Assembly: GCA_001822835.1 (NCBI GenBank)
Contig: MHSS01000004.1
Span: 7,186-71,185 of the forward strand
Reading direction: 5' to 3'
Length of the DNA stretch: 64,000 bases
Source: Candidatus Terrybacteria bacterium RIFCSPHIGHO2_01_FULL_48_17
Lineage (GTDB): Bacteria; Patescibacteriota; Minisyncoccia; Terrybacterales; 2-01-FULL-58-14
Below, in pieces: positions 2,719 to 62,968 of the stretch. Position 1 is the first letter of the stretch. Each line of letters begins with the position of its first letter. A program made the translations under genes and the position numbers. The notes under the pieces were generated by a model that was not told the origin of the DNA, did not search any database, and saw nothing but the letters and a program-made list of their open reading frames with translations.

Positions 2719-2763
2719 CTTCTGTGTCCTTATCCCCTATCCCCTTATAACTTACCCTGCTTC

Positions 2764-3537
2764 TTACGCTCTTCTCCACGCAAGCGACAAGGCAAACAGC
2801 CCAACGCTTACTAAAATAATTGGGGGTCCGGGAGGAATCGAAAAGTAAGATCCCAACACAAGGCCCGTGATTGTCGCAATAACGGCAATCCCGGCGCTTA
2901 AGACAAGGAAGCTGCGAAGAGAAGAGCTCATATTTTGCGCAGTAGCCGCGGGAACGATAATTAAGGCACCCATCAACAACGTTCCTGCAAAACGGTAACC
3001 CAAAAGCACTCCTGCGGCAAACGCTAAAAGAAAGAGAAGCTCTGCAACATCTGTTTTTATTTTTGCGGAAGCGGCAAGCTCCGGCGAGACAACCGATAAC
3101 ACCAGACGCCGGGTTGCAAAAACCATAAGAATAATGAGGAGCAGTGCTGCAATAATGGCAACCACCGCCGCAAAGGGCGGAAGCGTTTCAATGCCTCCAA
3201 AAAGGGTCTCGAGCACCTCCTCTTCATGCCCGGCAAAAAGCAACGCGCCGACGGCAAGAGCTGAAACAAAAAATACTCCAATAACCGTTTCTTCGGGAAG
3301 TTTCGTCCGGGTACGTACAGCCCAAATAGCGTATGCCGCGCCGAACAAAAAAAGAGCCGCCCCCAAAGATGGAGAAAACGAAAAAGTTAGCGCAAGCGCA
3401 ACACCAGGAAATGCTACGTGCGACAACACATCCCCTGCAAGCGCCATGCGTTTCATAACGGCAAATACCCCCAAAACCCCGGCCGCTGCCGCAATAGCAG
3501 CGCCTGCCATAAAGGTAAGGATAAGATCAAAATCCAT
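2764..3537 (-). CDS. znuB: Zn/Mn ABC transporter permease (ABC-3)
   Basis: MALAGDVLSHVAFPGVALA motif, multi-TM, IIVPAATA motif. Confidence 0.88.
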   Translation of the reverse strand: MDFDLILTFMAGAAIAAAAGVLGVFAVMKRMALAGDVLSHVAFPGVALALTFSFSPSLGAALFLFGAAYAIWAVRTRTKLPEETVIGVFFVSALAVGALLFAGHEEEVLETLFGGIETLPPFAAVVAIIAALLLIILMVFATRRLVLSVVSPELAASAKIKTDVAELLFLLAFAAGVLLGYRFAGTLLMGALIIVPAATAQNMSSSLRSFLVLSAGIAVIATITGLVLGSYFSIPPGPPIILVSVGLFALSLAWRRA

Positions 3538-3543
3538 ATGCTA

Positions 3544-4254
3544 TTAATGTTGGTGCTCGTGATGTAAGTGTTGGTAAAAGCCGCGCTCGCCGCCGTACAC
3601 TTTTTGTAACACCTCTGGCGTTAACGCATCATGAATGCTGCCGTAACATACTTGGCTGCGGTTTACGCATACCACATGTGCGGCGTAACGGTATACGACA
3701 TTAAGGTCATGAGAAATCAACAAAATAGTGAGGTTGTGCTGTTTTTTGAGGCGTTCCAGCATTCGATAAATCTCTTCTGCTCCCGGCATGTCAACAGAGG
3801 TAGTTGCTTCATCAATCAACAATACGTCGGGGCTGCCCACCAAAGCCCAGGCAATTAATACGCGCTGCAATTGTCCTCCGGAGAGCACCCCGAGTTTTTT
3901 GTTCAAAATGTCGGCCTTTAACTCCACATCCTCAAGAACCTTGGCAAGATCCCTTGGACGTTCTCCGGTTTTGAACGAAAAAAATTCCTCCACCGTAAGC
4001 GGGAGATCTCGTTCTACACCAAAACGCTGGGGAACATATCCCAGCTTTATGTGTTTTGCCCACTCAATGCTTCCGGCATACGGTAATAGTCCAAGGAGCG
4101 TACGGAAGAGAACGGTTTTCCCCGCACCATTAGGACCAAGAATCGCAACAATATCACCGCGGTGTACGGCAAACGAGAGCTTGTCCAACACCACGTCATT
4201 GCCAAATGCAACCTGCAGATTTTTGACCTCAAGGACTACTTCTCCTTGTTCCAT
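3544..4254 (-). CDS. znuC: Zn/Mn ABC transporter ATP-binding protein
   Basis: GPNGAGKT, GYVPQ, LSGGQLQR, LLIDE, ISHD; His-rich C-terminus. Confidence 0.9.
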   Translation of the reverse strand: MEQGEVVLEVKNLQVAFGNDVVLDKLSFAVHRGDIVAILGPNGAGKTVLFRTLLGLLPYAGSIEWAKHIKLGYVPQRFGVERDLPLTVEEFFSFKTGERPRDLAKVLEDVELKADILNKKLGVLSGGQLQRVLIAWALVGSPDVLLIDEATTSVDMPGAEEIYRMLERLKKQHNLTILLISHDLNVVYRYAAHVVCVNRSQVCYGSIHDALTPEVLQKVYGGERGFYQHLHHEHQH

Positions 4255-4264
4255 AAAATCAGTA

Positions 4265-4290
4265 TACAGGGTACAGGGTACAGGGTACAG
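4265..4290 (+). repeat. (TACAGGG)x3.7 heptamer array
   Basis: Read directly; lies upstream of the znuC start. Confidence 0.9.
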
Positions 4291-12924: not shown

Positions 12925-13845
12925 CTACCCTTTGTTGCCTCGACTCAAGTATTTCCTATGCACTTCTTTAAGTTGTGGGTCGGTAACGTGGGTATAAACC
13001 TGCGTGGTTGTGATTGACGCATGCCCCAAAATCGCCTGAACAGAACGAAGGTCGGCGCCGTTTCGTAAAAGATCGGTAGCAAGGGAATGACGCATCGTAT
13101 GAGGGGTCACCTTTTTCCCTACGATTCCGGTTTTTACCGCATAGTGTTGTACCAAACGCTCTATGGAGCGTGGCGTTAAACGAGAGAAAAGATTCCCCTT
13201 CCCTCGTGGAATACGCACAAAAAGCGCCTCTTCCACTATATCTTTCCGCGCATCAAGCCATGTCTTCAACGCTTTTTTGGCGCGGTCAGATAAAAATACA
13301 ACCCGCACCTTTCCACCCTTCCCTCGCACAGAAAATTCTCCTTTCTTAAGATTTGCATCGCCGATATTAAGAGCGCATAGCTCTGAAACCCGTAAGCCGG
13401 TTGAAAAAAGGGTTTCCAAAATTGCCCGATCGCGCATAGCTCGCATACCAACACCCTCTGGCGCTTGAAGCAATCGCTCAAGCTCCTCTGGTTCCAAAAA
13501 CGAAACCTCGCGGTCTGGCTGTTTGGCAAGCTCAATCCGTTCAGCCGCCAACGCCTCAATCCCCTTATGGGCCAAATATTTAAGAAATGCGCGCAATGCA
13601 ATCAGATGATAGTTCTGTGTCTTTTGGTTAAGGGAAGGGCTCTGCCGATTCATCCATAAACGAAACTGTCGTACTCCCTCTTCCGTGAGATCCGAGAGAT
13701 CTAGTTTTTCCGCGTTGCCTTCTTTTGCAATAAATGCGAACAGGCGGCTCAAATAATGGTCGTAATTTTCAACGGTTTTGGGGGATCGTCCCCGCTCGAT
13801 CTCAATATACTCAAGAAATCGTTTTTTGGACTCATCAAGTTTCAT
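12925..13845 (-). CDS. xerC: XerC/D-family tyrosine recombinase
   Basis: SAM-like N domain, TGLRVSEL, GKGGKVR, HTMRHS, LGHASITTTQVY. Confidence 0.9.
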   Translation of the reverse strand: MKLDESKKRFLEYIEIERGRSPKTVENYDHYLSRLFAFIAKEGNAEKLDLSDLTEEGVRQFRLWMNRQSPSLNQKTQNYHLIALRAFLKYLAHKGIEALAAERIELAKQPDREVSFLEPEELERLLQAPEGVGMRAMRDRAILETLFSTGLRVSELCALNIGDANLKKGEFSVRGKGGKVRVVFLSDRAKKALKTWLDARKDIVEEALFVRIPRGKGNLFSRLTPRSIERLVQHYAVKTGIVGKKVTPHTMRHSLATDLLRNGADLRSVQAILGHASITTTQVYTHVTDPQLKEVHRKYLSRGNKG

Positions 13846-28560: not shown

Positions 28561-28565
28561 AATAT

Positions 28566-30476: not shown

Positions 30477-30480
30477 AAAC

Positions 30481-40493: not shown

Positions 40494-40497
40494 CACT

Positions 40498-44384: not shown

Positions 44385-44388
44385 ATTT

Positions 44389-47468: not shown

Positions 47469-47471
47469 ACC

Positions 47472-50548: not shown

Positions 50549-50549
50549 C

Positions 50550-50861
50550 ATGCCCTATTCATTTCGGAAGGCGCTCGAGGAACGGAAAACCCATTCTGCG
50601 GCTCTCCGTCAGGCAGAAGAGTGGCGCGACATAAAACACGCGTGGCAGATGGCCACGCGTGTTGTGTTTGGGAAAAAGCACAACATTTTTCGGACTCTTC
50701 GTATCGTTCGTTTCTCTAACGGCACTCTTGAAGTTGCTTGCGGCCATGCGGCAGAATGCGCCTCTGCTCGTTTACAGGAGCGAGAACTTCTTTCGGCGCT
50801 TAACCGGATTCTTGGGGAAACACTAACGGTGCATTCATTGCGCTTCCACCTTGAAGGTTAA
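50550..50861 (+). CDS. DciA/DUF721 family protein
   Basis: W..V.G....GTLEVAC.....L......LL..LN...V.SLRF; follows dnaN. Confidence 0.7.
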   Translation: MPYSFRKALEERKTHSAALRQAEEWRDIKHAWQMATRVVFGKKHNIFRTLRIVRFSNGTLEVACGHAAECASARLQERELLSALNRILGETLTVHSLRFHLEG

Positions 50862-53307
50862 GCGTGGTTGTGGTTTCCCCGCGGTTTCCCCAGGGGTCAA
50901 AGGCCCGAACAGTAAGAGTGACCGCGTCTTGTGATGAGGGCGCAGAAATCTTAACGCTCCCGGAATAGTAATCGGTTTGGCCTTGTCGTAAAAGGGTTGT
51001 CGCAAAAATCCCATCAATAAAAACAATTACCTGTGATATTCCCAATGGCGCTTGTGCAGAAACACGCACGGTAACGTTCGATTTGTTTTTGATGCTCGAT
51101 TCGGAAAACGGTTCGAGAATAAAGACATTCGGCTCGTTTTTTGGAACGTGGATGTCGTCATAGTCCTCGGGTGGGTGTTCTTGCGCGGATTGGGCAAGCG
51201 TAGGATCCGAAGAGATCCATTTTTGAACTGCCTGTTCCCAATTAGCAAACTGAGGATCCTGATATGGATTGTCGGGCGGATCGCCCCGTGGATCGCTCCG
51301 ATTTATCCAAAAAAGCGTGTCGTGCACAACTCGATATACGCGCTTTTCGGTCCATTCGGGAGGCGTGCGCTCCGTTGCTTTTTTTCCGGATGCCCGATCA
51401 ACAAACACGGTTTCTTCAATTGCCCATTGACCATTAAGAATTGGCTTGTCGGTTGAGACGGGTTTGGGCGGGATAAATTTTTCAGAGGGAATCTCGGCAA
51501 GCGCTGTTTTCATAAATTGATTCCAGATTGGTGCCGCAACCACGACTCCGTCAGCGCCACGTTTCATTGGAGAGTTATCGTTATTGCCAACCCATACGCC
51601 CGTAACAAGTGAGGGGGTATAACCAACAGTCCAAGCGTCCCGAAAATCTTGGTGTGTTCCCGTTTTTGCGGCAACCGGTCGGGAGCCAAGCGTGAGGGGA
51701 GAATTTGTACCAAATATGGGTGCGCGGGCATTGTTGTCGGAGAGTATGTTGGTGATCTGTCGCGCAATCTCTTTGTCCAACGCTTCTTTCTCTTCGGCTT
51801 TTCTTTCATATAATATCTTGCCCTGCGCATCTTCAATCTTTAAAATAGCGCCCGATGGTACCCGTATTCCATCATTGGCAAATACGCCAAACGCTCCGGT
51901 CTCTTCCAGGAGCGTTACCGCTCCTCCTCCTAAAACCAAGGCAAGGCCATACTCGTCTGGGCGGGTGAGCGTGGTTACGCCCAGGCGTTCTGCAAGTTTT
52001 ATGGCATTTTCTACACCTGCAAGATAAAGCATTTTGACAGACGGAACATTTAAAGAATTTGCAAGCGCTTGGCGTGCGGTTATTGGTCCCATGAAGGAGC
52101 CGTTGTAATTTTGCGGACGGTAGGATTTGGCGCCGCCTGTGGCAAATTCGGTTGGAACATCAAACAAAACAGTTTCAGTAGTAAACCCGCGTTCGAGCGC
52201 AGCAGCATAGACAACGGGCTTGAATGAAGATCCTGGTTGGCGTTGTCGTATCGCAACATTTACCTTGCCATCAATGGCGTCATCGAAGTAGTCGACCGAT
52301 CCTACAAGAGCGAGGATTTCTCCAGATTTTGGGTCAATTGCCACGAGTGCCGCATTGGTTGCACCCCATCGTTCAATGCGCGGCCTTAAGTCGGTAATAT
52401 TTTTTTCTGCGATTTCTTGTAGCTTCCAATCAAGTGAGGTGGTAATCCGTAAACCACCCCGCTCAAGGAGTTCAGTACCCACAAGCCGTTCTGCTTCTTC
52501 GCGCGCGAAAAAGACAAAATGGGGTGCTTTAATGTTGGTGCGCAGTGGTGCAAACATGGTTTCCTGTTCTCGCGCTTTTGTGCCCTCGTCATGGGAGATA
52601 TACCCAAGCTCTTCCATGCGGTCTAGGATATGGTTTCGGCGCGCGATCAGTTCCTCTGCATGGGAACCATACGGGGAATAAAACGAGGGGGCTTTGGGAA
52701 GCGCTGCCAAGGCGGCCGCTTCATCGAGCGTTAAGTCAGAGACGGGTTTATTAAAAAACATTCGCGAAGCCGCTTCGGATCCATAGATGTTGGAACCATA
52801 AGGAATTTGGTTAAGATATGCTTCCAGAATTTCTTCTTTGGAGTAACGCAATTCAAGTTCCAGCGAAAGGACGATTTCTCGGATTTTTCGTGCAGGGGTT
52901 TTCTCTGGAGTAAGCACGGCGTTGCGCACAAGCTGTTGTGTAATAGTGGAGCCCCCCTCGGCGAATTCGCCTTTAAAAATATCGCGCAAGGTTGAGCGGA
53001 TAACGCCGGGGATATCGATACCAATATGGTGAAAGAACTGATCGTCTTCGGCCGCAAGGGTTGCGTTTACTAGATACGGCGAAATTTCATCAAGCGCTAC
53101 AACGCGCCGACGCTGTTCATTAAAGAATTCAAACAGTAATACATTCCCTGTACGATCGAACACCTGAGTTGTTTGTTCAATATGACGTTCGGCAAATGCG
53201 GCGGGTGTCGGGAGATCGCGAATACTCCAGAGCACAAAGACAATAGCCGCAAGCAGAAGGATTCCTGTTGCAAGGGCTATGCGTTTAATGAGTTTCTTAG
53301 GTATCAT
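50800..53307 (-). CDS. class A penicillin-binding protein with C-terminal Ig-like domain
   Basis: AEDDQF, GGSTITQQL, RKIRE, GSSFKP, SLN, KTG. Confidence 0.95.
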   Translation of the reverse strand: MIPKKLIKRIALATGILLLAAIVFVLWSIRDLPTPAAFAERHIEQTTQVFDRTGNVLLFEFFNEQRRRVVALDEISPYLVNATLAAEDDQFFHHIGIDIPGVIRSTLRDIFKGEFAEGGSTITQQLVRNAVLTPEKTPARKIREIVLSLELELRYSKEEILEAYLNQIPYGSNIYGSEAASRMFFNKPVSDLTLDEAAALAALPKAPSFYSPYGSHAEELIARRNHILDRMEELGYISHDEGTKAREQETMFAPLRTNIKAPHFVFFAREEAERLVGTELLERGGLRITTSLDWKLQEIAEKNITDLRPRIERWGATNAALVAIDPKSGEILALVGSVDYFDDAIDGKVNVAIRQRQPGSSFKPVVYAAALERGFTTETVLFDVPTEFATGGAKSYRPQNYNGSFMGPITARQALANSLNVPSVKMLYLAGVENAIKLAERLGVTTLTRPDEYGLALVLGGGAVTLLEETGAFGVFANDGIRVPSGAILKIEDAQGKILYERKAEEKEALDKEIARQITNILSDNNARAPIFGTNSPLTLGSRPVAAKTGTHQDFRDAWTVGYTPSLVTGVWVGNNDNSPMKRGADGVVVAAPIWNQFMKTALAEIPSEKFIPPKPVSTDKPILNGQWAIEETVFVDRASGKKATERTPPEWTEKRVYRVVHDTLFWINRSDPRGDPPDNPYQDPQFANWEQAVQKWISSDPTLAQSAQEHPPEDYDDIHVPKNEPNVFILEPFSESSIKNKSNVTVRVSAQAPLGISQVIVFIDGIFATTLLRQGQTDYYSGSVKISAPSSQDAVTLTVRAFDPWGNRGETTTTLNLQGGSAMNAPLVFPQESG

Positions 53308-53374
53308 CTAAATTCTACTTTCTCATAGCTTTTGGTTGGTTGCAACGTAAGCATTTCTTGCGCACAATAGAGAG

Positions 53375-54559
53375 ATGAGGCCTTTTCCCCATGGCGAACT
53401 TGCGTCTTTCCTTTCTCGGGGGGTTGACGATATTGTTTCGCGAGACGAAGTTAATCAAATCCTAAAGAGCACAAAGCCGGTGATCGTGAAATACGGCATT
53501 GACCCAACAACCGCCCAGCTGCATCTTGGATATTGGGTTATTTTCCGGCGCCTTAAGAAGCTACAGGCCCTTGGGCATACCGTGGTTGTGGTGTTGGGCA
53601 CGTTTACCGGACGCTTCGGCGATCCTACCGGAAAAACCAAGGCACGTACTCTTCGGGAGAAGCGCGAAGTAGAAGGCGTTGCCCGATCCCTTTCTATTAT
53701 GGTCAAAAAAATATTGGCGCCATCTCGTACCAAGATAACGCAAAACGCGCGATGGCTTGACGCAATGTCTCTTGATACGTTTTTTCACCTTCTTAGTCAT
53801 TTCACGGTGGGACAGATGCGCGAGCGAGATCTTTTTCAAAAGCGTGAGCATGCAGGTAAAGAAGTATATCTTTATGAGTTTTTGTATCCAATATTGCAGG
53901 CATATGATTCTGTAGCAATTAATGCCGATCTTACTATTGTGGGATCCGATCAATTATTTAACGAACTTCAGGCGCGGAAGCTCCAGCACAGTTTAGGACG
54001 GAAAGCACAGGGCATCATTACGCTCAAACTCTTACCAGGCACTGACGGCAAAGAAAAAATGTCACAATCGCTTGGCAATGCCATTAACGTGTTTGATTCT
54101 GCGGAGGAACAGTTCGGTGCGCTAATGTCTATTCCCGATGCTGCTGTGCCAATATACGCGGAACTTCTTTCGGATTTTGAGCTCGCACCTCTTGTGCGCG
54201 CAAGCGCAAAAGGCGGTATTGCCGCACGCGATGCTAAAATGAGGGTTGCCGAAACTGTTGTTGCTGAAATCCATGGCACGCATGATGCGGCTCGCGCGAA
54301 AGAACGGTTTGTGGGGCGTTTCCGAAAACATGAGGTTACGAGTCATCCGTCAGCAAAAATGGGTGCGCATACCATCGTTGATGTTTTGGTGGAAATAAAA
54401 ATGGCTTCGTCGAAAAACGAAGCGCGACGGCTTCTTAAACAGCGGGGCGTGAAGATTAACGGAAATATAATTACAGACGAACGTCACGCCGTTTCGCATC
54501 AAGACGTTATTGCGGTTGGCAAACGAAGAACCGTAAAAGTTATACGTAAGACCGGATAA
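53375..54559 (+). CDS. tyrS: tyrosyl-tRNA synthetase
   Basis: GIDPT..LHLGY, GDPTGK, YPILQAYD, GSDQ.FN, KMSQS, S4 domain. Confidence 0.95.
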   Translation: MRPFPHGELASFLSRGVDDIVSRDEVNQILKSTKPVIVKYGIDPTTAQLHLGYWVIFRRLKKLQALGHTVVVVLGTFTGRFGDPTGKTKARTLREKREVEGVARSLSIMVKKILAPSRTKITQNARWLDAMSLDTFFHLLSHFTVGQMRERDLFQKREHAGKEVYLYEFLYPILQAYDSVAINADLTIVGSDQLFNELQARKLQHSLGRKAQGIITLKLLPGTDGKEKMSQSLGNAINVFDSAEEQFGALMSIPDAAVPIYAELLSDFELAPLVRASAKGGIAARDAKMRVAETVVAEIHGTHDAARAKERFVGRFRKHEVTSHPSAKMGAHTIVDVLVEIKMASSKNEARRLLKQRGVKINGNIITDERHAVSHQDVIAVGKRRTVKVIRKTG

Positions 54560-54612
54560 GCCACGGTGGTTCACGTACGATGCGGCTTCATTTAATGCAA
54601 ACAGGACACAAA

Positions 54613-54640
54613 ACCCCGGCACGTTCTTTCGTGCCGGGGT
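54613..54640. terminator. hairpin between convergent tyrS and the acidic microprotein gene
   Basis: ACCCCGGCACG-TTCTTT-CGTGCCGGGGT. Confidence 0.75.
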
Positions 54641-54645
54641 CAGTG

Positions 54646-54777
54646 TTATTCCTCGTTTCCGAAATCTTCTTCCTCTTCCTCGTCGTCGACATCTTCTTCA
54701 GGCACATCAGCGGTTTCGCTTTGGTCGTCTTTTTGTGACGTGACCACAAATCGTTTAAGTAAAGCATCTGAGGCCAT
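54646..54777 (-). CDS. 43-aa highly acidic microprotein (not in the ORF track)
   Basis: MASDALLKRFVVTSQKDDQSETADVPEEDVDDEEEEEDFGNEE; SD AAGGAGGTGA; terminator directly downstream. Confidence 0.75.
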   Translation of the reverse strand: MASDALLKRFVVTSQKDDQSETADVPEEDVDDEEEEEDFGNEE

Positions 54778-54956
54778 AAAATTCACCTCCTTTTCAAAAG
54801 TTCCCCCATATGGATCGCGGGGGCACCTAGATTAGATAAATGATATTTTCTACTACCTATTATTGCCGTGCTTCTATATTGCCAAACAAAAAGGCGTGGT
54901 CAAAGGATAGATCTGGGGATAAGCCCAAATTGTTTATTGGGAGCACACGGATCGTT

Positions 54957-55433
54957 TTAGGGGGTATATGTATAAAGACGCGAAGACCCCACAATAGCAA
55001 TGGCTAAAGCGTCTGCGGCATCTGGGGGGCTTGGAGGTTGCGAAAGATCCAGCAGCTTCGCTACAGTTTCTTGAATTTGGCGTTTTGAGGCAGAACCGGT
55101 TCCGCAAATCGCCTTTTTTACGGATGCTGGCGATAATTCCACAACGGGAAGTTTTCGGTCGGCTGCAGCAAGCAGCACAATACCCCTTACGTAAAGCGTT
55201 TTGAACGCGTCCCCACGCGCCTGTCCCCAAAACACCTTTTCCAAAACCACTCGGTCTGGACGCGTTTTCGTAAGGAGACCGTTAATTTCGTGGCTAAAAA
55301 ACTGTAATCGCTCACCAAGCTCCCCGCCTTTTGGTGCGATAACCCCAAACGTTATTGCCTCGGGTCGTGCGCTGCCAGTCACTACGCCAAAGCCGGTGCG
55401 GGAAAAACCAGGATCGATACCAAGGACCATCAT
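54957..55433 (-). CDS. ruvC: Holliday junction resolvase RuvC
   Basis: LGIDPG, LEKVF, VKKAI.G.G.ASK, DAADALAIA. Confidence 0.96.
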   Translation of the reverse strand: MMVLGIDPGFSRTGFGVVTGSARPEAITFGVIAPKGGELGERLQFFSHEINGLLTKTRPDRVVLEKVFWGQARGDAFKTLYVRGIVLLAAADRKLPVVELSPASVKKAICGTGSASKRQIQETVAKLLDLSQPPSPPDAADALAIAIVGSSRLYTYTP

Positions 55434-55471
55434 AAGGGATAGTGAATATGGGGTAGAGAGTAGAGAATGGC

Positions 55472-56194
55472 TTATATTATGTTGGACCAGATTTGTTGAA
55501 TATCGTCATGATTGTCAAGCGCTTCAACCAGCTTCCCGAAAACATGTTCGTCGGCACCTGACAAGGTAATCGGCTGGGTTGGTTTCCAGCCAAGGGTTAT
55601 ATCTTCTACGGCGACTCCGCGATCTTCACACGCGCGACGTACGAGATCAAGCTTTTGCGGGTCTTGAACTACCACCTCAATCGTATCGTCTTTTTCAATG
55701 TCATCCGCCCCGGCATCCATCAAAACAAGTTCAAGCTCGTCGTTCTTCTTGTCCTGTTTTGTAGGGTCAATAGTTATAAATCCCACACGCCGAAACGCCC
55801 ACCCAACGCCTCCCTCTGCCGCTGTTTTGGCACCACTTATTTCCAAAAGATGCTTTATCTCGCTCACCGTGCGGTTTTTATTATCGGTTATGCCCTCAAT
55901 GAGCAGGAGCGATCCAGCGGGTCCCACGGCCTCGAGCAAAAACGGTTCAAGCGCTCCTCCCTCTAGGGTTCCGCTGCCGCGCGCTATTGCGCGTTCTATA
56001 TTCTCTTTTGGCATATTGAGCGTTCGTGCCCGATCAATCTCCATGCGTAGTTTTGCATTCGCATTTGGGTCATTTCCGCCTTCACGAGCCGCAATAGAAA
56101 TTGCGCGGGAAAGCTTACCAAACATTTTCCCGCGTTTTTTATCGGCAGTTTCTTTTTGATTTTTGATATTTGACCATTTGGAGTGGCCGGACAT
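55472..56194 (-). CDS. yebC: YebC/PmpR family protein
   Basis: MSGHSKWSNIK, NMPKENIERAI, TDNKNRT. Confidence 0.97.
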   Translation of the reverse strand: MSGHSKWSNIKNQKETADKKRGKMFGKLSRAISIAAREGGNDPNANAKLRMEIDRARTLNMPKENIERAIARGSGTLEGGALEPFLLEAVGPAGSLLLIEGITDNKNRTVSEIKHLLEISGAKTAAEGGVGWAFRRVGFITIDPTKQDKKNDELELVLMDAGADDIEKDDTIEVVVQDPQKLDLVRRACEDRGVAVEDITLGWKPTQPITLSGADEHVFGKLVEALDNHDDIQQIWSNII

Positions 56195-56246
56195 AGGACA
56201 GGGATTGGGGGGTTAGGGAATAGGGAACAGAAATCGGGGAATGGGA

Positions 56247-57602
56247 TTATAATTTAATGCGATAGAAAACGACGCCGGCGCCAGCAAGGAGCGCAAGGGC
56301 TACAGCTCCAATAAGGGGAAGGTTTGCGCCGAGAGGCGAGGATGGGTTTGAAGCAGCGGCTTGAAGCGCTAATGCCTCGCTTTCATTATCATCTGTAGTT
56401 GAGGGTTTAGCATCGGAAGGCAAAGAAGGAGCCGTGGTTTGTGAAGTTTTTGGCGATGCGCTTTTTGAAATTGTGCCTGTGTTTTGCGCGGGAATTGTAG
56501 GAGCTTGAGCCGGTGGGGTCTGTGCAGACGCCGTTTCTCCGCCCGACGCTGTTTGCTGATTGCCAGTTGCCTTTTTCTGATTGGCCGCATTTGGTGTGGG
56601 CTTGCTCGTCCATTCCCAGGTGTCGCCGAAACGCGCAAGCGCCAACCCTTCAGCGCTCTCATTATAGCGTATTGCGTCGTGTTGTTGGCCAGACGGATCA
56701 ATGAGCCGTACCGTGTCGCCGTCTGTGTTATTGAGCGTCAGTTTTGTTTGCGAGTAATAAAAAGCGCGGTATTCTCCCGAAACGAGAGAGGTTCCTTCGG
56801 GAATAGTCCAAGGGCCGGTTGTGTTGCCGTCTTGATCATCAAGTCGCCATCCCGATACGTCAACTTGGGCTGTGCCAGTGTTTACGATTTCAATAAACTC
56901 GTTTTCGACATCCCGGCCATCAGGATCCGGGAGGAGTTCGGAGAGAAAAACCTGCGTGGTGTCATAATCTGGAGGCGGTTCCGGATCTGTTGTGGGTGCC
57001 GGATCCGGCGATGACGGATCCGGTATCGGTGGTTCTTGCTCCTGGGGCGGGGGAGGAGTTTGTTCTTGCGGCGGCTCTTCCTGTTGAACGGAGGAATTTG
57101 GCGCTTTTGGCGTTCCTCCGGCGCTCATGCTTGTTTGCCAGTTGTCTGAAGCGGTGCGCTCCATGGTTTGTTTGGTTGTATTGTCGCCCGCAGGCCATCC
57201 AGAAAAAGCGTCAATCGTTTGTACGGTATTGTTATCAGCGTCTTTCAGTAAAAGCACTTCTCCGCTATTTGAAAGCGCGCCGGTATAGATTTGGTCGGCG
57301 GTAATCGTGGGAATGGTTTCGTCATCCGTACGTTCGAGCAAAAAATACCCCCTGGCCGAAATAGTTCCGGAAAGCAATATAGTTGGTGTCCCGTCAGCGG
57401 CCTCAATAGTCCAGCCGGAAAGATCCACTGATTCACTTCCAAAATTTGCAAGCTCAATCCATTCATCCGCCGTACTCGTTGTTGTCCCCATCCATGCAAT
57501 TTCGTTTATCACCACGTTGGAATTTGCAACAGCCGAAACCGGCACCATCATTCCTGTTGCCATCCCCATTGCTGCTATTGTTATGACGGCCGATTTTTTC
57601 AT
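56247..57602 (-). CDS. surface protein with two lamin-tail domains and a C-terminal TM
   Basis: VVINEIAW..DEWIEL.N..VDLSGW and LSELLPDP..EFIEI.N..VDVSGW; Pro-rich linkers. Confidence 0.88.
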   Translation of the reverse strand: MKKSAVITIAAMGMATGMMVPVSAVANSNVVINEIAWMGTTTSTADEWIELANFGSESVDLSGWTIEAADGTPTILLSGTISARGYFLLERTDDETIPTITADQIYTGALSNSGEVLLLKDADNNTVQTIDAFSGWPAGDNTTKQTMERTASDNWQTSMSAGGTPKAPNSSVQQEEPPQEQTPPPPQEQEPPIPDPSSPDPAPTTDPEPPPDYDTTQVFLSELLPDPDGRDVENEFIEIVNTGTAQVDVSGWRLDDQDGNTTGPWTIPEGTSLVSGEYRAFYYSQTKLTLNNTDGDTVRLIDPSGQQHDAIRYNESAEGLALARFGDTWEWTSKPTPNAANQKKATGNQQTASGGETASAQTPPAQAPTIPAQNTGTISKSASPKTSQTTAPSLPSDAKPSTTDDNESEALALQAAASNPSSPLGANLPLIGAVALALLAGAGVVFYRIKL

Positions 57603-57782
57603 ACGTAGCTTCTTTAACGGATGTTTCCGTGTTAGTCAAGTTGTTAATAGTAGTAGCGGTGTTTTCTTATCTGAAATATAATTCCGCCCTCCCGGGCGGC
57701 TTCGTTTTTTTATCTTTGTTTTCCTCACGCGAGCACGAGCGGCGGGGCTGCGAGCGCTCTTTATTATTTTATCACCCTGGAA

Positions 57783-57950
57783 GCAGATGGGGTGCGTTAA
57801 GAAAAGTGTCGCGCAGCTCGAGCGGGCATGGATGGGCGCGTTCGTGGTTCGTAAGCTGAAAGCTTCGCGCCCAGAGCGAGCGCGAGCGCCAAGCCGCAGA
57901 CGCCTCGCTGGGGCGGCTGACGGCGTCTTTTCGAAACGCGCCCCATCTGC
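57783..57950. mobile_element. MITE/REPIN-like element with terminal inverted repeats
   Basis: GCAGATGGGGTGCGTT ... AACGCGCCCCATCTGC (15/16), pairing extends inward through GAAAAG/CTTTTC; GC-rich interior. Confidence 0.5.
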
Positions 57951-57960
57951 CCCACCTCTC

Positions 57961-58485
57961 TCATGGCCAGGGACGGTTCCCTTTTAACGCGATCCGCTGC
58001 GCGCGCGCGATAATCTCTTTTACTACTTCCGGCCGGTCTACCTGCTCAAACGTAAACACGTTTAACTCGCCTGCAGTTTGCGCGCGAATAGTTCCAAAAT
58101 GAAGTAGGGTTTCCACAAGACCTCGTTGTTCTATCGTAACATCCTGCAGTCGTGAGAGATTTAACTCCGCAACCGTGCGGTTAAACATGCCCTTTTGTTC
58201 AATATGTACAATCCGTTCGTTGGTAATAATAAAGACGTCGTAATAATAGTTAATCATGCCGGCAAAGAGCCATAGCCATACCGTCCATTCAAAAAACCCG
58301 GAAAGAAACACATACGGCGTGATAAGCGCGCCACGAAGGATTTCAAGTTTGGGAGCCGCAAGAATTGCTGCGCCAAAAAGCGGCCCAAGCAGCAAAAGAA
58401 GCGCGGCTGCCCAAGTTGCGGCAAATACAAACCACGTTTTTCTTCGAACGGCTAAAATATCTTCATTCTTGTGGAGTTCAATCAT
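57961..58485 (-). CDS. bacterial PH-domain membrane protein
   Basis: Two TMs, IITNERIV..EQ.G.F.R, LQDVT..Q.G, FGTI..QTAG. Confidence 0.85.
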   Translation of the reverse strand: MIELHKNEDILAVRRKTWFVFAATWAAALLLLLGPLFGAAILAAPKLEILRGALITPYVFLSGFFEWTVWLWLFAGMINYYYDVFIITNERIVHIEQKGMFNRTVAELNLSRLQDVTIEQRGLVETLLHFGTIRAQTAGELNVFTFEQVDRPEVVKEIIARAQRIALKGNRPWP

Positions 58486-58523
58486 TGGTTAGCAAATAGG
58501 GATTAGAGAATAGAGAATAGGGG

Positions 58524-58745
58524 CTATTGTTGGAGGAGTTCGGGCAGGGAGCTCCAGGGAGTGGCAAGAAATGATGCAAGAATCAGAATAGCCCAAACAA
58601 TGGTGCCGACAAGAAATAAAACAAGCAATTGCCTCGAACGGTCGCCCTGGACCGCATATTTTTTAATATGGTATACGATGGCTGCAGAAACTGCGCCAAA
58701 AAATAAAAGACCCAAAAGCAGAAAAGCGGCGGCGAGGAAAAACAT
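58524..58745 (-). CDS. small two-TM membrane protein
   Basis: SAAIVYH..KY motif between TMs; operonic position. Confidence 0.75.
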   Translation of the reverse strand: MFFLAAAFLLLGLLFFGAVSAAIVYHIKKYAVQGDRSRQLLVLFLVGTIVWAILILASFLATPWSSLPELLQQ

Positions 58746-58785
58746 ATTCTATAAGGGAATAGGGAGTAGGGAATAGGGAATAAAA

Positions 58786-59814
58786 CTAGAAGAGCTTCGT
58801 ATTTCTGTTGTCAGGGGGTTTGAGACCCAGGTGTTCCCAGGCCTCGGCCGCTGCTACGCGTCCTCTCGGGGTGCGCAGCACGTATCCGATTTGCATAAGA
58901 TATGGCTCGACAAAATCAAGGAGCGTATCCTCTTCTTCAGAAAGCGAGGCGGCGAGCGCCTGGATGCCGGCTGGCCCACCCTTAAATTTTTCTATAAGAA
59001 TACGCAGGTATTCCCGATCGAGCTTATCGAGCCCTTTTTCGTCTATTTCCAGCATCGAAAGCGTCCGTTCGGTAGTGACGTCGTCGATGTTTGGCGATTT
59101 CGTGCCACCTTCAACTTGCGCCACATCCCGTGCGCGTTTTAAAAGCCGGTTGGCAATGCGAGGCGTTTGGCGCGCGGCTTTTGCGATGCGTTTTTTCGCT
59201 TGCGCGTCCAAAGATACCCCAAGCAATCGGGCGGATCGCCCAAGGATTTCTTCAATTTCGTCATCCGTATAAAAATCTAAACGAAATGCCTGACCGAATC
59301 GTGATCGGAGGGGGGAAGACAAAAGCCCTACGCGCGTGGTCGCGGCGATTAATGTGAACGGCGGAAGATTCAATTGCAGTGTACGCGCAGCTGTGCCTTT
59401 GCCAAGAATAATATCTAGCGTCCGCGCTTCCATCGCGGGGTACAGCACCTCCTCCACCATGCGGGGAAGTCGGTGGGCCTCATCGATGAAAAGCACCTCG
59501 CCTGGTTCAAGATTTGTAAGTATGGACGCAAGATCACCAACGCGTTCGATGGCGGGGCCGGAAGTTACGCGCATGGTTGCTGTCATATGTTTTGCAATAA
59601 GATGTGCGAGCGTTGTTTTCCCAATACCCGCGGGACCGTGCAGTAATATATGGTCAAGCGTACCTTCTCGTAAGCGAGCGGCTTGTATGGCGATAAGCAA
59701 ATTTTCTTTTGCCTGTTTTTGGCCCACATATTCCTCGAATACTTCTGGGCGAAGCGTTAATTCAAGGGTCGGATCTTGCGCTAAAGGGGCGCGAGGGCGT
59801 TCGCTTTTTGGCAT
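58786..59814 (-). CDS. ruvB: Holliday junction helicase RuvB
   Basis: LRP..F.EYVGQ, GPAGIGKTT, FIDEAHR, PLRSRFG, RTPRGR; start at ATG 59814. Confidence 0.98.
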   Translation of the reverse strand: MPKSERPRAPLAQDPTLELTLRPEVFEEYVGQKQAKENLLIAIQAARLREGTLDHILLHGPAGIGKTTLAHLIAKHMTATMRVTSGPAIERVGDLASILTNLEPGEVLFIDEAHRLPRMVEEVLYPAMEARTLDIILGKGTAARTLQLNLPPFTLIAATTRVGLLSSPLRSRFGQAFRLDFYTDDEIEEILGRSARLLGVSLDAQAKKRIAKAARQTPRIANRLLKRARDVAQVEGGTKSPNIDDVTTERTLSMLEIDEKGLDKLDREYLRILIEKFKGGPAGIQALAASLSEEEDTLLDFVEPYLMQIGYVLRTPRGRVAAAEAWEHLGLKPPDNRNTKLF

Positions 59815-59823
59815 ATGGGATAG

Positions 59824-59852
59824 TTGACAAAAATATAGAAATCTGCTATAAT
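59824..59852 (+). promoter_or_regulatory. perfect sigma70 promoter driving a non-coding RNA
   Basis: TTGACA-17 nt-TATAAT with an extended -10 TG. Confidence 0.85.
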
Positions 59853-59859
59853 TCTTTAC

Positions 59860-60017
59860 AGAGGAGCGTTTGGCGAGTTGCCGGCCCCGGCTCCGGTCGG
59901 GGAGGGGATATCCTGGCGGATGGGCCATCAGGCCTTGGCTCGATGGTTCCTCGAGGATATCCTTCCTCGTGGTTCCCAAGCCAAGAGATTTTCCGGCAAC
60001 TCGCCGAGCGTTTCTTT
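59860..60017 (+). ncRNA. highly structured ncRNA (6S RNA candidate or new class)
   Basis: 25-bp terminal helix with G.U pairs, inner helices, C(UCCG)G tetraloop; terminator hairpin at ~60019-60052. Confidence 0.75.
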
Positions 60018-60045
60018 CGATTCGTCCCTCTTTGAGGGGCGATCT

Positions 60046-61746
60046 TTATTTTATTTTGAAAAGCTCCTCCATATCTTCAAGTGGTCCGGTGACGCGTTCA
60101 AGTTCTGCCGTATCGGTAGTGCCATCCAAGACGCGCAGCAGGCCATCCTGTTGCATGGTTACCATTCCACGTTCGGCTGCGGTCTTGCGAACCTCAAAAG
60201 TGGATGGCTTTTTAAGTGTAAGCGATTCCATTGCAGAGTCCATGGGGAATAATTCAAAGATGCCTACGCGGCCGCGATAACCGGTATTGTGGCATGCGGC
60301 ACATCCTTTTGCGTAAAAGAGCTCAAGCCCCTTTGAAAAGGTCGGCATAAGTGGCGCGGGAAGGCCCGCAAGAGCTTTTTTGATTCGACTCGTCATTTCC
60401 TCATTTAGGGTGGCGCTCGTTGCGCATTCTTTACAAAGACGGCGCAACAGCCGTTGTCCTATAATAAGCGAGAGTGCGGGCGCGATGGTTTCTGGTTTTG
60501 CGCCAAGCTCAATAAGTCGCGGTATGGCTCCTGGGGCATCGTTGGTATGGAGCGTTGAGAAAACGAGATGCCCGGTAAGTGCTGCTTGTAACGCGATGTT
60601 TGCGGTTTCTATATCACGCACCTCTCCTACCAAAACATAGTCCGGATCCTGCCGTACGATCGAGCGCAGCCCAACCGCAAATGTGTATTTAGCTTCTGTA
60701 TCCACTTGCGTCTGTTCAATTCCCCGAATGCGGTACTCGATAGGATCTTCGATCGTAATGATTTTTACTTTTGGCGTGGTGACGTGGCGTACCAAGGCAT
60801 ACAGCAGAGTAGTTTTTCCGGATCCGGTGGGACCGGTGGTAAGAATCATTCCATTTGGTTGTTTTAACCCTTCCCGAATTTTTTCCAAAAGATCTTGCCG
60901 CAGCCCAAGCTCCTCCAGGCTTAACAGGTTTCGCGGGTTTAGAATCCGAAGCGTTACAAACTCCCCGTATTTTCCCGGAAGGGAAGATGCGCGGATTTCA
61001 ATATCTTGTTGTTCTACATGGATGGTGAAGCGGCCATCTTGCGCGCGATCTCGTACATTAAGTTTTAATCCCGCAAGAAGTTTAAGGCGTTCCAGCACCA
61101 GGTTATACATTTCTTGTTCAAGCTCGGCGATGTCTTGCAAAATACCATCTATACGGAGACGAACAAGCGATTTTTTTTCTTGGGGTTCGATATGGATATC
61201 TGAGGCATCGGCAAAAAGCCCTCCTGCCAAAACAAGATTCACCGCAACTCCAAAATCTCGCGGTTCGATCTGTTGCAACAGTTTACGCAGCTCATCAAGC
61301 GCATTCAGTTGTTTTTTAAACGCTGCGATATCCGCGCTTGAGATGCTTACTTCTCCAGAAATGCGTTGGCCCCCACGAGCATATTTTTCATATTCTGAAA
61401 GAAGTTCCAAAAAACCACTTTGCGAGATAACGGAAAGTTTTGGTTTAAGGCCCTGTTGTTCAAGCTCCTCCAAAAACTCTTTTGTTTCTTTACGTTCGGG
61501 ATTGGGGGTTATGATACCAATGCCATGGTCTTCTTGGCTATACGGGAAAGCCAGGGCTTGCGTAAGCTTCTCTTTTGGATAACGGGACAACACCATGCTG
61601 TCGATAGAGACGCTTTCGTGTTGTGTAAAGGGAAGCTTGAGGCGTTGGGCAAGCTCTCGACCCCGTTCTTCCTCTTCGCGCCTGTGTAAAGCCGAGATTT
61701 TTTTTGCAACTGCATTTCGATCGTTCGTGCCGAATGTGTCTGGCAT
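60046..61746 (-). CDS. pilB: PilB/GspE-family pilus assembly ATPase
   Basis: ASDIHIEP, QDGRF, TGPTGSGKTT, IEDPIEY, RQDPD, LTGHLVFSTLHTN, CxxC...CxxC. Confidence 0.93.
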   Translation of the reverse strand: MPDTFGTNDRNAVAKKISALHRREEEERGRELAQRLKLPFTQHESVSIDSMVLSRYPKEKLTQALAFPYSQEDHGIGIITPNPERKETKEFLEELEQQGLKPKLSVISQSGFLELLSEYEKYARGGQRISGEVSISSADIAAFKKQLNALDELRKLLQQIEPRDFGVAVNLVLAGGLFADASDIHIEPQEKKSLVRLRIDGILQDIAELEQEMYNLVLERLKLLAGLKLNVRDRAQDGRFTIHVEQQDIEIRASSLPGKYGEFVTLRILNPRNLLSLEELGLRQDLLEKIREGLKQPNGMILTTGPTGSGKTTLLYALVRHVTTPKVKIITIEDPIEYRIRGIEQTQVDTEAKYTFAVGLRSIVRQDPDYVLVGEVRDIETANIALQAALTGHLVFSTLHTNDAPGAIPRLIELGAKPETIAPALSLIIGQRLLRRLCKECATSATLNEEMTSRIKKALAGLPAPLMPTFSKGLELFYAKGCAACHNTGYRGRVGIFELFPMDSAMESLTLKKPSTFEVRKTAAERGMVTMQQDGLLRVLDGTTDTAELERVTGPLEDMEELFKIK

Positions 61747-61936
61747 TAGTTCTATTGTACCATATTAGACGCGGACGTACGCTGACTAAACGCTGACTTA
61801 CGCGGAATCTCACACCCACACATGATAGTAGTTTACCGTAGCGCAGGATGTGGTGAGCGTCAATCGTTTCTTGACGAATTAACCGGTTTTTGTTATCCTC
61901 ATCGTGGCAGTTTGACAATAGGAAAAGGAAAAAAAG

Positions 61937-62290
61937 ATGACGCTTTTTGAGTTGATCGAAAAGAAGTTGAGGTTTGCTTCTGTTAATACCGAGTCATGGG
62001 CGGATGTAGAAAGAGTTATCATCTGGTCTGTGCCGCATAAGCCCCGATTGGATTTTTATCACCATATGGCTCCGCGTGCCGTTACGCCCGGAGAAGCAAA
62101 GCACTTATTTAAAAACGTAACCATTAATGGGGCCTCCTCGGGAGATGACACCCTCCCTGATTTTACGGTTATCACGAAACGATTCGTGGTCTTTGTTGAT
62201 CATCGTCAGCATTCTGCGCCGAGCACATATATCGGTCCGCGCCGTACGCATGACGTACTCACAGCAGCTCCGCGTCAGCCAATACTATAA
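61937..62290 (+). CDS. hypothetical protein (standalone cassette)
   Basis: TTGACG-17-TATCCT, SD AAGGA, terminator at 62292-62317. Confidence 0.7.
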   Translation: MTLFELIEKKLRFASVNTESWADVERVIIWSVPHKPRLDFYHHMAPRAVTPGEAKHLFKNVTINGASSGDDTLPDFTVITKRFVVFVDHRQHSAPSTYIGPRRTHDVLTAAPRQPIL

Positions 62291-62340
62291 TCCGCCCCCA
62301 AAAGGCGGCATTTTTTTGGATCTAAGATACAATAGAGGCA

Positions 62341-62835
62341 ATGGTGACGAAAAACGATAACGAATTGGTTGCGCTTGGAAAAAAGACAGGAGAAGCCCTG
62401 CGCCAACAAAAAAACGGTCCCCTGGTTCTTGCTTTGGTAGGGGAGCTGGGTTCCGGCAAAACCACATTTGTGCGCGGGCTTGCGAAGGGCCTTGGTATTC
62501 GTGCGCGCATTACCTCGCCAACGTTTGTGCTGGCGAAACGGTATCGTGTGCCCGCGATAAGAAACAAGAAACAAGAAACAAGAAACAAACAAGATACAAG
62601 ATACAAAAAACAAGAAACAAACCGGCAATACTTTTGGCACATGGACGCGTATCGGCTAAAAGATGGGCGTGACCTTGCGGGCATTGATTTTGAGGAAATA
62701 GTAAGCGACTCCGCAAATATTGTTGCCATTGAATGGGCAAACAAAATAAAACGCGCGATTCCGAAAGGCGCGCGCTGGATTCGTTTTTTCCATTTACCCG
62801 GCAATCGCCGCAAAATAATTTTTTCGATGGAATAA
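62341..62835 (+). CDS. tsaE: t6A biosynthesis ATPase TsaE
   Basis: GELGSGKTTF, TSPTF, HMDAYRL, AIEW; carries a ~21-aa repeat-derived insertion. Confidence 0.95.
   Translation: MVTKNDNELVALGKKTGEALRQQKNGPLVLALVGELGSGKTTFVRGLAKGLGIRARITSPTFVLAKRYRVPAIRNKKQETRNKQDTRYKKQETNRQYFWHMDAYRLKDGRDLAGIDFEEIVSDSANIVAIEWANKIKRAIPKGARWIRFFHLPGNRRKIIFSME
62557..62620 (+). repeat. (ACAAGAA)-type heptamer array inside tsaE
   Basis: About nine units encoding IRNKKQETRNKQDTRYKKQETN. Confidence 0.92.
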
Positions 62836-62968
62836 AAAAGAGGGAATATGAAATAAGGAGTAAGGATTCCGCGGCTGTCAGCGGAGAATTCACGAAACTT
62901 GCTTTTTCGGAGATGGGGTGATAAGCTCTGAATGAAGGAAATTGAAAAAAGAAGAGAGAGGAAGAAAT

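Follow-up and report, generated by a model that had tools for sequence, protein, structure and literature searches.

Dispersed heptamer arrays in a Patescibacteria genome: orientation around genes and a possible origin as hairpin arms

Decades of work have recorded tandem repeats of seven-nucleotide units in cyanobacteria, Xanthomonas and other bacteria, without explaining what makes them. Here we analyze a dispersed set of such heptamer arrays in a 64,000-nucleotide stretch of Candidatus Terrybacteria bacterium RIFCSPHIGHO2_01_FULL_48_17 (GenBank assembly GCA_001822835.1, contig MHSS01000004.1, positions 7,186 to 71,185; the whole stretch is termed the window) and in the genome to which it belongs, describe the placement, orientation and folding of the arrays, and weigh what may have made them. 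The host is a metagenome-assembled genome (MAG) of the Patescibacteria, or candidate phyla radiation (CPR), comprising 865,335 bases in 16 contigs and 98.68% complete. The best relatives of its PNPase (739 aa) are MAGs titled Patescibacteria, Parcubacteria, Paceibacterota, Yanofskybacteria and the like, at 45-59% identity; among the genomes used for this comparison, the closest are a member of the same family (58%) and two members of the same order (56% and 54%). An earlier note, made from the letters of the window alone, had set the arrays beside the STRR repeats of cyanobacteria, a framing that these relatives show to be wrong for the host. So minimal a genome offers few confounders, having neither a reverse transcriptase nor a four-helix-bundle gene and few mobile elements. 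Its housekeeping genes in the window include those for the CCA-adding enzyme, PNPase, RsmA, TyrRS, RuvC, YebC, RuvB, TsaE, YidC, Jag, DnaA, DnaN and PBP1, and arrays lie between and within several of these (Table 1).

Heptamer arrays in the window and the genome

Eighteen array sites had been listed in the earlier note, and all are 7-nt periodic. Fourteen were recovered by Tandem Repeats Finder (TRF), which returned 16 period-7 rows and two period-14 rows (37823 and 45832) in the window; the listed places found in this way are 2731, 4265, 16801, 25661, 31387, 36941, 37201, 37356, 37823 (scored as period 14), 42007, 45832/45842, 58495, 58754 and 62559. The other four (23010, 55433, 56193 and 62836) fall below the TRF threshold, and lag-7 autocorrelation identified them: their best self-match is at lag 7, at 0.53-0.61 of positions, a level reached by no more than 0.005 of 2000 shuffles. 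TRF also found arrays at 37017, 37934 and 56153 that were missing from the list. One placement required correction, since the array at 58751, said to abut a start codon, actually abuts the stop codon of ruvB.

Table 1. Heptamer arrays and heptamer-bearing hairpins of the window and their settings (positions are those of the window; the sign after gene coordinates is the gene's strand)
Position	Strand	Repeat	Setting
2731-2745	- (purine-rich on - strand)	TATCCCC, 2.1 copies	19 nt past stop of ABC-3 permease gene 2764-3537(-); purine-rich in mRNA sense
4265-4290	+	TACAGGG, 3.7 copies, perfect	11 nt upstream of start of ABC ATPase gene 3544-4254(-), whose mRNA leader has CCCTGTA repeats, then a U-rich run, without Shine-Dalgarno
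16801-16833	+	ACAGGGG, 4.7 copies	In-frame QGTGDGGQGT in PNPase, a loop insertion directly before the GDMD motif
23008-23040	-	Degenerate GTACCCT/ATACCCT/AAACTCT	Adjoins stop of M23/LysM peptidase gene 23043-24260(-); lag-7 match 0.58, 0 of 2000 shuffles
25661-25677	+	CAGTAAT, 2.4 copies	Within RsmA/KsgA-type rRNA dimethylase gene 25336-26169(+)
31387-31403	+	CAGGGGA, 2.4 copies, with AATCAGT units alongside	Region contains stop codon of gene 30481-31413(+)
36941-36967	+	TACAGGG, 3.9 copies	In ORF 36481-37341(+)
37017-37041	+	AATCAGA, 3.6 copies	In ORF 36481-37341(+)
37201-37261	+	ACAGGGG, 8.6 copies	In ORF 36481-37341(+)
37345-37406		Short hairpin: GTTAAGA arm, then complementary TCTTAAT-type arm	Directly after stop of ORF 36481-37341
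37823-37956		Long imperfect hairpin; duplex z -5.8	Ends 9 nt before start of gene 37965-38633(+)
42007-42036	+	AGGGAAT, 4.3 copies, perfect	100 nt past stop of gene 40821-41906(+), in the 3' part of the Wzy_C gene open frame 41903-43189(-)
45832-45952		Hairpin element	Between Polysacc_synt gene (start 45858, - strand) and R3H/Jag gene
55434-55471	+	Degenerate purine-rich heptamers	Occupy entire 38-nt spacer from ruvC start to yebC stop (both -); lag-7 match 0.58, P=0.0005
56153-56173	-	TTTTTGA, 3 copies	Within first codons of yebC-family gene
56195-56246	+	Degenerate G-rich heptamers	Occupy 52-nt spacer from yebC start to stop of LTD-domain gene (both -); lag-7 match 0.53, P=0.005
58495-58520	+	AATAGAG, 3.7 copies	10 nt upstream of start of bPH_2 gene 57961-58485(-)
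58754-58782	+	AGGGAAT, 4.1 copies	4 nt past stop of ruvB, 58786-59979(-); pyrimidine-rich in ruvB sense
62559-62622	+	AAGAAAC/AAGATAC, 9.3 copies	In-frame RNKKQETRNKQDTRYKKQET in TsaE 62341-62835(+)
62836-62870	+	Degenerate purine-rich heptamers	Begin immediately past TsaE stop; lag-7 match 0.61, P=0.001

Interrogation of the whole genome with TRF, after merging of overlapping rows, gave 140 arrays of period 7, with 2, 19, 40 and 65 of periods 5, 6, 8 and 9, corresponding to 16.2 period-7 arrays per 100 kb and a ratio of period 7 to periods 6 and 8 combined, p7/(p6+p8), of 2.37. Exact period-7 arrays numbered 44, against a mean of 1.4 in five third-order Markov simulations of the whole genome; the observed counts and simulated means were 4 and 4.6 for period 5, 12 and 4.4 for period 6, and 2 and 0.2 for period 8. 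The earlier note had named a lack of enrichment over neighboring periods as fatal to its claim, and period 7 is clearly enriched. Analyses of array classes described below use 163 arrays of period 7, 14 or 21.

Copy number in the period-7 arrays is nearly flat at first, with 42, 46 and 42 arrays of two, three and four copies, and then falls about tenfold, to 3, 3, 1, 1 and 2 arrays of five, six, seven, eight and nine copies. Expressed as length, this is a plateau from 22 to 34 nt with a hard cap near 34 nt; arrays of periods 6, 8, 9 and 10, unlike those of period 7, decay straight from two copies. Because free slippage predicts a tail, a cap without one indicates that something limits array length.

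Independent assemblies support the arrays. Among the matches listed for the stretch 36001-46000 were 20 public runs from 15 groundwater and soil metagenome studies, the habitats from which the matching runs derive. Logan contigs of eight runs, selected after exclusion of two possible source runs, were compared over 28001-48000 and 44001-64000, and difference-free contigs span 31387, 36941-37261, 37823-37956 (run X8), 45838, 58495 (X4, X9 and X13) and 62836 (X4 and X13). The longest perfect or near-perfect arrays, at 42007 and 62559, are contig break points, those of run X3 breaking at 42007. Contigs of other organisms, much more abundant, collect in the bin 62010-62676, where the AAGAAAC array of TsaE lies; at 95% likeness their depth is 112 in one run and 94 in another, against about 5. 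This indicates that AAGAAAC-type arrays are common to several members of the community.

Orientation, hairpins and unit families

Polarity was counted, by gene side, for arrays lying no more than 15 nt from a gene boundary. In 26 of 31 such arrays (binomial p=0.0002), the 5' to 3' direction of the purine-rich strand leads away from the neighboring gene, so that polarity is not random genome-wide; at limits of 30 and 50 nt the counts are 30 of 37 and 30 of 41. For a gene left of the array, the + strand is purine-rich rather than pyrimidine-rich in a ratio of 6:3 where the 3' end of the gene faces the array and 9:0 where the 5' end does; for a gene on the right, the ratios are 1:5 and 1:6. Gene flanks free of arrays are unbiased, with purine fractions of 0.517 upstream (n=388) and 0.502 downstream (n=385). 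Read in mRNA sense, 3' ends have 11 purine-rich and 4 pyrimidine-rich arrays and 5' ends 1 and 15, which bears out the description in the earlier note of purine-rich arrays at gene ends and pyrimidine-rich arrays at starts. The link to transcription that it drew from this pattern does not hold, as the rule applies equally at 5' and 3' ends on either side of the array and reduces to a purine strand that leaves the gene. Nor does a link to the replichore: within the window, polarity flips inside single spacers, and arrays purine-rich on the + strand predominate on either side of dnaA-dnaN. A rule that is symmetric with respect to strand, and flips within single spacers, cannot be set by the direction of replication. 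Between the pyrimidine array of a 5' end and the start codon lie 5-16 bases, mostly U-rich, with no Shine-Dalgarno sequence; arrays at 3' ends often start in or at the stop codon. The array at 58754, adjoining the stop of ruvB, is an exception to the polarity rule.

The adjacent dnaA and dnaN genes occupy 47838-50548, and AT skew changes sign nearby. Their 200-nt spacer (49241-49432) contains three DnaA-box-like 9-mers with one mismatch each, plus an AT-rich repeat, and is likely the replication origin; over the whole window there are 13 DnaA-box-like sites, not above the 11.5 expected by chance. Genes on either side of dnaA-dnaN point toward this likely origin, an unusual arrangement.

Folding of array-bearing spacers confirmed that the elements described earlier as complete consist of an A-rich arm followed by a T-rich arm. 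The folded A/T-rich arrays are arms of long imperfect hairpins, in the order A-rich arm, loop and T-rich arm, represented in the window by 37345-37406, 37823-37956 and 45832-45952. The second of these comprises an A-rich word arm at 37823-37857 (period 14), a CGTGCG core in the loop and a T-rich TTTGGAT arm at 37934-37956; the third has an A-rich arm, a loop with CGAACGTGCGGGTCTTGG and a T-rich arm. That same loop sequence is shared by two hairpins with different arm words, at 45880-45900 of the window and at 24460-24480 of contig C2, and several hairpin loops have a CACGT or ACGTG core. For 14 of 25 gene-adjacent arrays that are not G-rich, the spacer side supplies a complementary partner (duplex z<-2 relative to shuffled flanks). 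Considering all 163 arrays, 25 have an ungapped inverted partner within 250 nt, compared with 1.7% of 300 random controls.

Similar pairs lie within ribosomal RNA. The 23S rRNA gene on contig C13 (100805-103701), which ends at model position 2035 at the contig end, includes three pairs of a purine-rich and then a pyrimidine-rich array within the 23S rRNA match, where the DNA exceeds the corresponding model segments by about 245, 427 and 204 nt. No ORF of the family PF05635 lies in this region; the pairs appear to be hairpin insertions resembling rRNA intervening sequences (IVS), without any ORF. The order characteristic of an IVS-like cassette, with the purine arm first, is found both in the window and elsewhere in the host genome.

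When classed on the purine-rich strand, the 163 arrays fall into 52 that are G-rich (GGG type, with units xCAGGGx, AATAGGG and GATAGGG), 23 made of an A/T-rich "CCAAA-word", 8 of AAGA(A/T)AC, 9 of AATCAGx and 71 others. The earlier note had combined a fixed period with a free unit sequence: the period is fixed in that only period 7 is strongly enriched, and the sequence is not free, as a few unit families recur across the genome. Two classes can be distinguished, A/T-rich word arrays that form the arms of long hairpins and solo G-rich arrays, many of which are translated in frame within essential genes, among them PNPase. Some arrays are mixed (for example AATCAGT, AATCAGG and ACAGGGG) and look like the product of point mutation and slippage. 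Two, three and four G-tracts occur in 13, 21 and 12 of the G-rich arrays, respectively, and five or more in 5, so that only 17 of 51 could fold alone as a quadruplex. The G-quadruplex was considered as a selected feature and rejected, the mode being three G-tracts with no preference for four units.

By crude gene calls, 88 of the 163 arrays fall in ORFs; some are true in-frame insertions, and others may reflect ORFs that read through pyrimidine-rich arrays. The in-frame insertion in PNPase is secure: of 39 aligned relatives, 35 lack it and four have unrelated short inserts. The array at 62559 divides the Pfam match of TsaE in two, and ORF 36481-37341, which matches no Pfam family, has three translated arrays that are purine-rich in the sense strand. 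Among intragenic arrays generally, the sense strand is purine-rich in 60 and pyrimidine-rich in 25. The amino acids encoded are G, Q, K, T, R, D, N and E in sense-purine arrays and P, L, F, I and S in sense-pyrimidine arrays, and we ascribe the bias to selection for harmless, disordered loops. Arrays add disordered loops to essential enzymes such as PNPase, TsaE and RsmA, and also break metagenome assemblies at their sites.

Other features of the window were recorded alongside the arrays. A same-strand cluster resembling a type IV secretion system (T4SS) at 26191-41906 includes M23/SLT lytic enzymes, a P-loop ATPase of the TraG/VirB4 type (38712-40493) and a T4SS-pilin-like gene (40821-41906), and contains several heptamer arrays and two hairpins. 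A solitary tyrosine recombinase (Phage_integrase) gene lies on the - strand at 12925-13845, between glycoside hydrolase and NYN-domain genes. Period-9 repeats, AATTGCTCT and TTAGGTCAA, occur at 32150-32290, in the spacer that separates gene 31419-32147 from gene 32305-34449. In four runs, contigs of other organisms have the same ends of about 21 nt with a different interior, at depths of up to 258 compared with about 8, which suggests a small element with conserved ends that is spread through the community. At 57534, one X4 contig (depth 4.3) lacks 19 bases in the LTD-domain gene 56247-57602, which would shift the frame; this gap may be an error or a strain variant.

Possible origins of the arrays

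The earlier note had proposed a dedicated generating mechanism in place of ordinary slippage, either templated addition or repair or the footprints of a mobile cassette, and had named TIGR02436 four-helix-bundle proteins, GxxExxY proteins and reverse transcriptases as candidate genes. None of these was found in the host: six-frame searches of the whole 98.7%-complete genome gave no RVT_1 (PF00078) match and no match to GxxExxY (TIGR04256) at E<=1, and the four-helix-bundle family is considered below. A search for genes flanked on both sides by matching inverted arrays up to 2.5 kb apart gave five weak pairs, none of them a convincing cassette. The sole hint of a bracketed segment in the host genome is on contig C1 (21194-22276), where a 361-aa ORF with three arrays includes a purine-rich CAGGGTA array (21404) and its reverse complement (22145), 717 nt apart.

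Related genomes present a different picture. Of the 151 genomes in the same class, 94 have PF05635 matches (89 above the Pfam cut-off); these include G001-G003, three genomes in which PNPase is 54-58% identical to that of the host. The five PF05635 genes of these three have neighbors with few or no syntenic counterparts in the host. When 37 PF05635 loci were inspected for arrays of period 7 or 14 within 160 nt, 20 had them on both sides of the gene, 6 had them on one side and 11 had none. Over the 100-nt flanks, polarity was purine to pyrimidine at 17 loci, flat at 16 and reversed at 4, and at the 20 loci with both arms the corresponding numbers were 13, 7 and 0, whatever the strand of the gene. 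Units differ by genome and track G+C content, being AAACCCT and TTCGAGA in G001 (57% GC) and AATTAGA and AGAATTT in G002 (43% GC). The AAGATAC/AAGAAAC units form the arms of a PF05635 cassette in the order-level relative G003 and also the TsaE array of the window.

Array density also tends to accompany these four-helix-bundle cassettes, with their same arm polarity, within this one class. We sampled 42-150 kb from each of 21 genomes, picked by PF05635 count and size of contigs. Period-7 arrays had a median of 20.5 per 100 kb (range 5.5-53) in 12 PF05635-positive genomes and 8.8 (1.0-13.3) in nine negative ones (one-sided Mann-Whitney p=0.002), and the median p7/(p6+p8) was 2.13 in the former and 0.80 in the latter (p=0.006, same test), although the sampled genomes are kin rather than independent and these p-values overstate the evidence. 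Six of the nine negative genomes have no period-7 excess (ratios 0.25-0.80), so the bias is not one that the replication machinery of the class has in general. Contrasts between negative and positive members of one family all agree in direction (G017, 2.1, with G085, 10.0; G032, 8.8, with G065, 25, and G093, 53), as does one contrast within a genus (G042, 3.9, with G100, 14.7).

From these observations we favor, tentatively, the reading that the arrays derive from a hairpin element in which the purine arm comes first, being its arms, its hairpins without a gene and its solitary, decayed arms, kept periodic by slippage and filtered by selection. In related genomes this element carries a small four-helix-bundle gene (PF05635, "23S rRNA intervening-sequence protein"). 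The sites at which the element inserts would be intergenic spacers, 23S rRNA and tolerant loops of proteins; its arms would be kept periodic by slippage during replication, spacers would shrink until the arms abut genes, and selection would retain within genes the sense-purine arrays encoding loops rich in Gly, Gln, Lys and Thr. The host would have lost, or never had, the four-helix-bundle gene, leaving its arrays as orphans. A hairpin with a purine arm and a pyrimidine arm is identical on both strands, so that its left arm is always purine-rich and its right arm pyrimidine-rich, and the polarity rule follows without a link to transcription. Of the mechanisms proposed earlier, the footprint of a mobile cassette fits best, since many arrays are arms of purine-first hairpins and similar arms bracket PF05635 genes in relatives; the argument against ordinary slippage also stands in part, plain slippage fitting poorly, whereas templated addition by a reverse transcriptase is not supported.

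Several observations weigh against this reading. Its principal gene is missing: six-frame searches of the whole host genome gave no match to PF05635 (23S_rRNA_IVP) or TIGR02436 at E<=1, and yet the host, at the density given above, has more arrays than any of the nine sampled negatives. Two of the three same-genus contrasts run in the wrong direction (negative G009, 13.3, with positive G050, 8.3; G030, 10.8, with G119, 5.5). Repeats of periods 6 and 8 are also 1.8 times more frequent in PF05635-positive genomes, and cassettes could settle in existing arrays instead of making them. The solo G-rich arrays are another main difficulty: only 1 of 52 has an inverted partner (1 of 12 when adjacent to a gene), and no conserved flanks, terminal repeats or target duplications were found around them. 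They nevertheless obey the polarity rule in 10 of 12 cases within 30 nt of a gene, and because they do so without partner arms, hairpin geometry cannot explain them. Spacers with arrays are no more structured than others (median z -1.69, n=19, compared with -1.85 in 45 sampled of 211; p=0.75). Finally, contigs of the eight runs, in which rare variants stay hidden, revealed no indels of seven bases and no presence/absence polymorphism at the arrays.

The alternative that survives best, possible though we consider it doubtful, is replication slippage alone, in which the machinery favors 7-nt slips, chance provides the seeds and selection shapes placement and orientation, with no mobile element. 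It would account for the mixed arrays, for G-rich arrays without partner arm or conserved flanks, for a host with arrays and none of the candidate genes, and, through selection, for the 60:25 sense bias within genes; in addition, according to a survey summarized in the part of PMC4679880 available to us, heptanucleotides dominate among the long simple repeats of many bacteria, for which an explanation from polymerase contacts has been proposed. Against it stand the enrichment of period 7 only, the plateau of copy number from two to four and its tenfold fall, where other periods decay from two, and the recurrence of a few unit families at dozens of unrelated sites and in relatives of different G+C content. 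Moreover, it provides no reason for a strand-symmetric polarity at both gene ends or for the six PF05635-negative genomes of the class without period-7 excess, and the contigs of eight runs contain no +/-7 indel.

Less likely is a set of selected cis signals, with pyrimidine leaders acting as Shine-Dalgarno-independent starts or protein-binding sites, and 3' arrays or hairpins as terminators, RNA-stability or RNase III sites, or G-quadruplexes. The placement of arrays is suggestive here, 5-16 nt before the start codon with a U-rich run that leaves no room for a Shine-Dalgarno sequence, and in or right at the stop codon; placement is alike in the heptamers of Xanthomonas and Nostoc and in TAACTGA repeats, as far as the portions of PMC4692102 and PMC4679880 available to us describe them. 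G4 motifs are more numerous in the genome (32) than in three simulations (9-15), and co-directional spacers generally fold better in sense than in antisense RNA (140 compared with 67). For spacers that bear arrays, however, this last comparison is only 12 to 8, with few cases, and 34 of 51 G-rich arrays have fewer than the four G-tracts of a quadruplex. More than half of the arrays (88 of 163) lie inside ORF calls, where such signals make little sense, and the arrays adjoin housekeeping genes that are unrelated.

An origin by templated addition, in which a reverse transcriptase or a telomerase-like enzyme writes G-rich 7-nt units at DNA ends or breaks, is close to refuted: AATAGGG, ATTAGGG and, in relatives, AAACCCT resemble telomere-type repeats, but the 98.7%-complete genome gave no match to RVT_1, the unit families include many that are not G-rich, and the arrays lie in genes and spacers, not at DNA ends. 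That the arrays are an artefact of assembly or binning is scarcely conceivable, for although contig breaks tend to fall at the longest arrays (42007 and 62559), which also gather foreign contigs, independent assemblies of eight runs give the arrays letter for letter and many arrays preserve the long reading frames of conserved genes.

Returning to the hairpin element, we can extend the argument beyond this lineage, with rather low expectation of being right: the excess of 7-base repeats in bacteria would be the footprint of one widespread, undescribed mobile hairpin cassette, with arms built of heptamers, the purine arm leading, a four-helix-bundle S23p/Avd-like gene in its loop and rRNA IVS as a special case. 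Were this so, the host would be a natural orphan that has lost the gene, with about 140 arrays in spacers, 23S rRNA and essential proteins, in which the making of arrays can be separated from their keeping. If cassettes and heptamers are causally linked, a single problem with a testable agent would unite the orphan family PF05635/TIGR02436, rRNA IVS and the excess of heptamers.

Comparison with known repeats and insertions

STRR comprise several families of tandem heptanucleotides dispersed over the chromosomes of filamentous cyanobacteria, and their origin is unexplained. The arrays described here share with them the presence of multiple dispersed heptamer families, head-to-tail 7-nt copies and over-representation of period 7; they differ in that the host is not a cyanobacterium, the arrays are short, mostly of 2-4.7 copies, and many are translated in frame. 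The palindromic elements of Rickettsia are alike as short repeated DNA tolerated in frame in conserved genes of a reduced genome, and different in that the in-frame G-rich arrays are tandem rather than palindromic, 15-60 nt long and have only their unit in common. Heptanucleotide repeats in bacteria at large were reportedly surveyed by Mrazek et al. in 2007. In the available part of PMC4679880, TAACTGA repeats are described just before start codons in Beggiatoaceae, Cyanobacteria and Bacteroidetes, with no Shine-Dalgarno sequence left. Dominance of period 7, sites just before start codons and a patchy distribution across phyla are common to those bacterial heptanucleotide repeats and ours (PMC4679880, same part), which are set apart by the many unit families in one genome, the pyrimidine-rich state of 5'-end arrays in mRNA and the link to hairpins.

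A close likeness is that to the G-rich heptamers of Xanthomonas (GGGAATC) and Nostoc PCC 7120 (GGGGA(C/T)T) described by Rehm et al. 2015 (PMC4692102), which we cite from the part of its text available to us. These repeats lie near ORF ends, mostly on the non-coding strand upstream and on the coding strand downstream; period 7 alone is in strong excess, some repeats form inverted pairs, four units are preferred, and in Nostoc a sizeable share is intragenic. Dispersed tandem units with G3+ tracts, the period-7 excess and the same placement and strand rule are thus common to both sets, and for G-rich heptamers the rule of position and strand is already published there. The strand-symmetric polarity of that published rule is what a palindromic element would give. 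In contrast, the present host is a Patescibacteria MAG, its units are xCAGGGx and AATAGGG, the mode is three G-tracts and not four, and G-rich units account for only about one third of the arrays, while A/T-rich word hairpins have the same polarity. Literature searches, which did not extend to subscription journals, found nothing pairing heptamer or heptanucleotide repeats with Patescibacteria, Parcubacteria or CPR among the top-ranked matches, nothing relevant on small dispersed or heptameric repeats in Nostoc, and, on links of rRNA IVS, S23p, four-helix-bundle or TIGR02436 to heptamers, only PMC4990558 as relevant, concerning a single IVS.

That IVS, from Coxiella burnetii, has three (three to four) GACAGAT units in its 5' arm upstream of the S23p ORF, in a copy number that varies by strain, and an RNase III site at the first GACAGAT repeat, according to the available part of PMC4990558. 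It resembles the arrays described here in its stem-forming, purine-rich 5'-arm heptamers, and in our host heptamer hairpins occur both in the 23S rRNA gene and between genes. A further likeness to 23S rRNA IVS comes through the relatives, in which arms bracket PF05635 genes. Compared with PF05635-bearing IVS, the host has no PF05635 ORF, and most copies lie outside rRNA. The kind of heptamer repeat is known, and this lineage and this anatomy are new.

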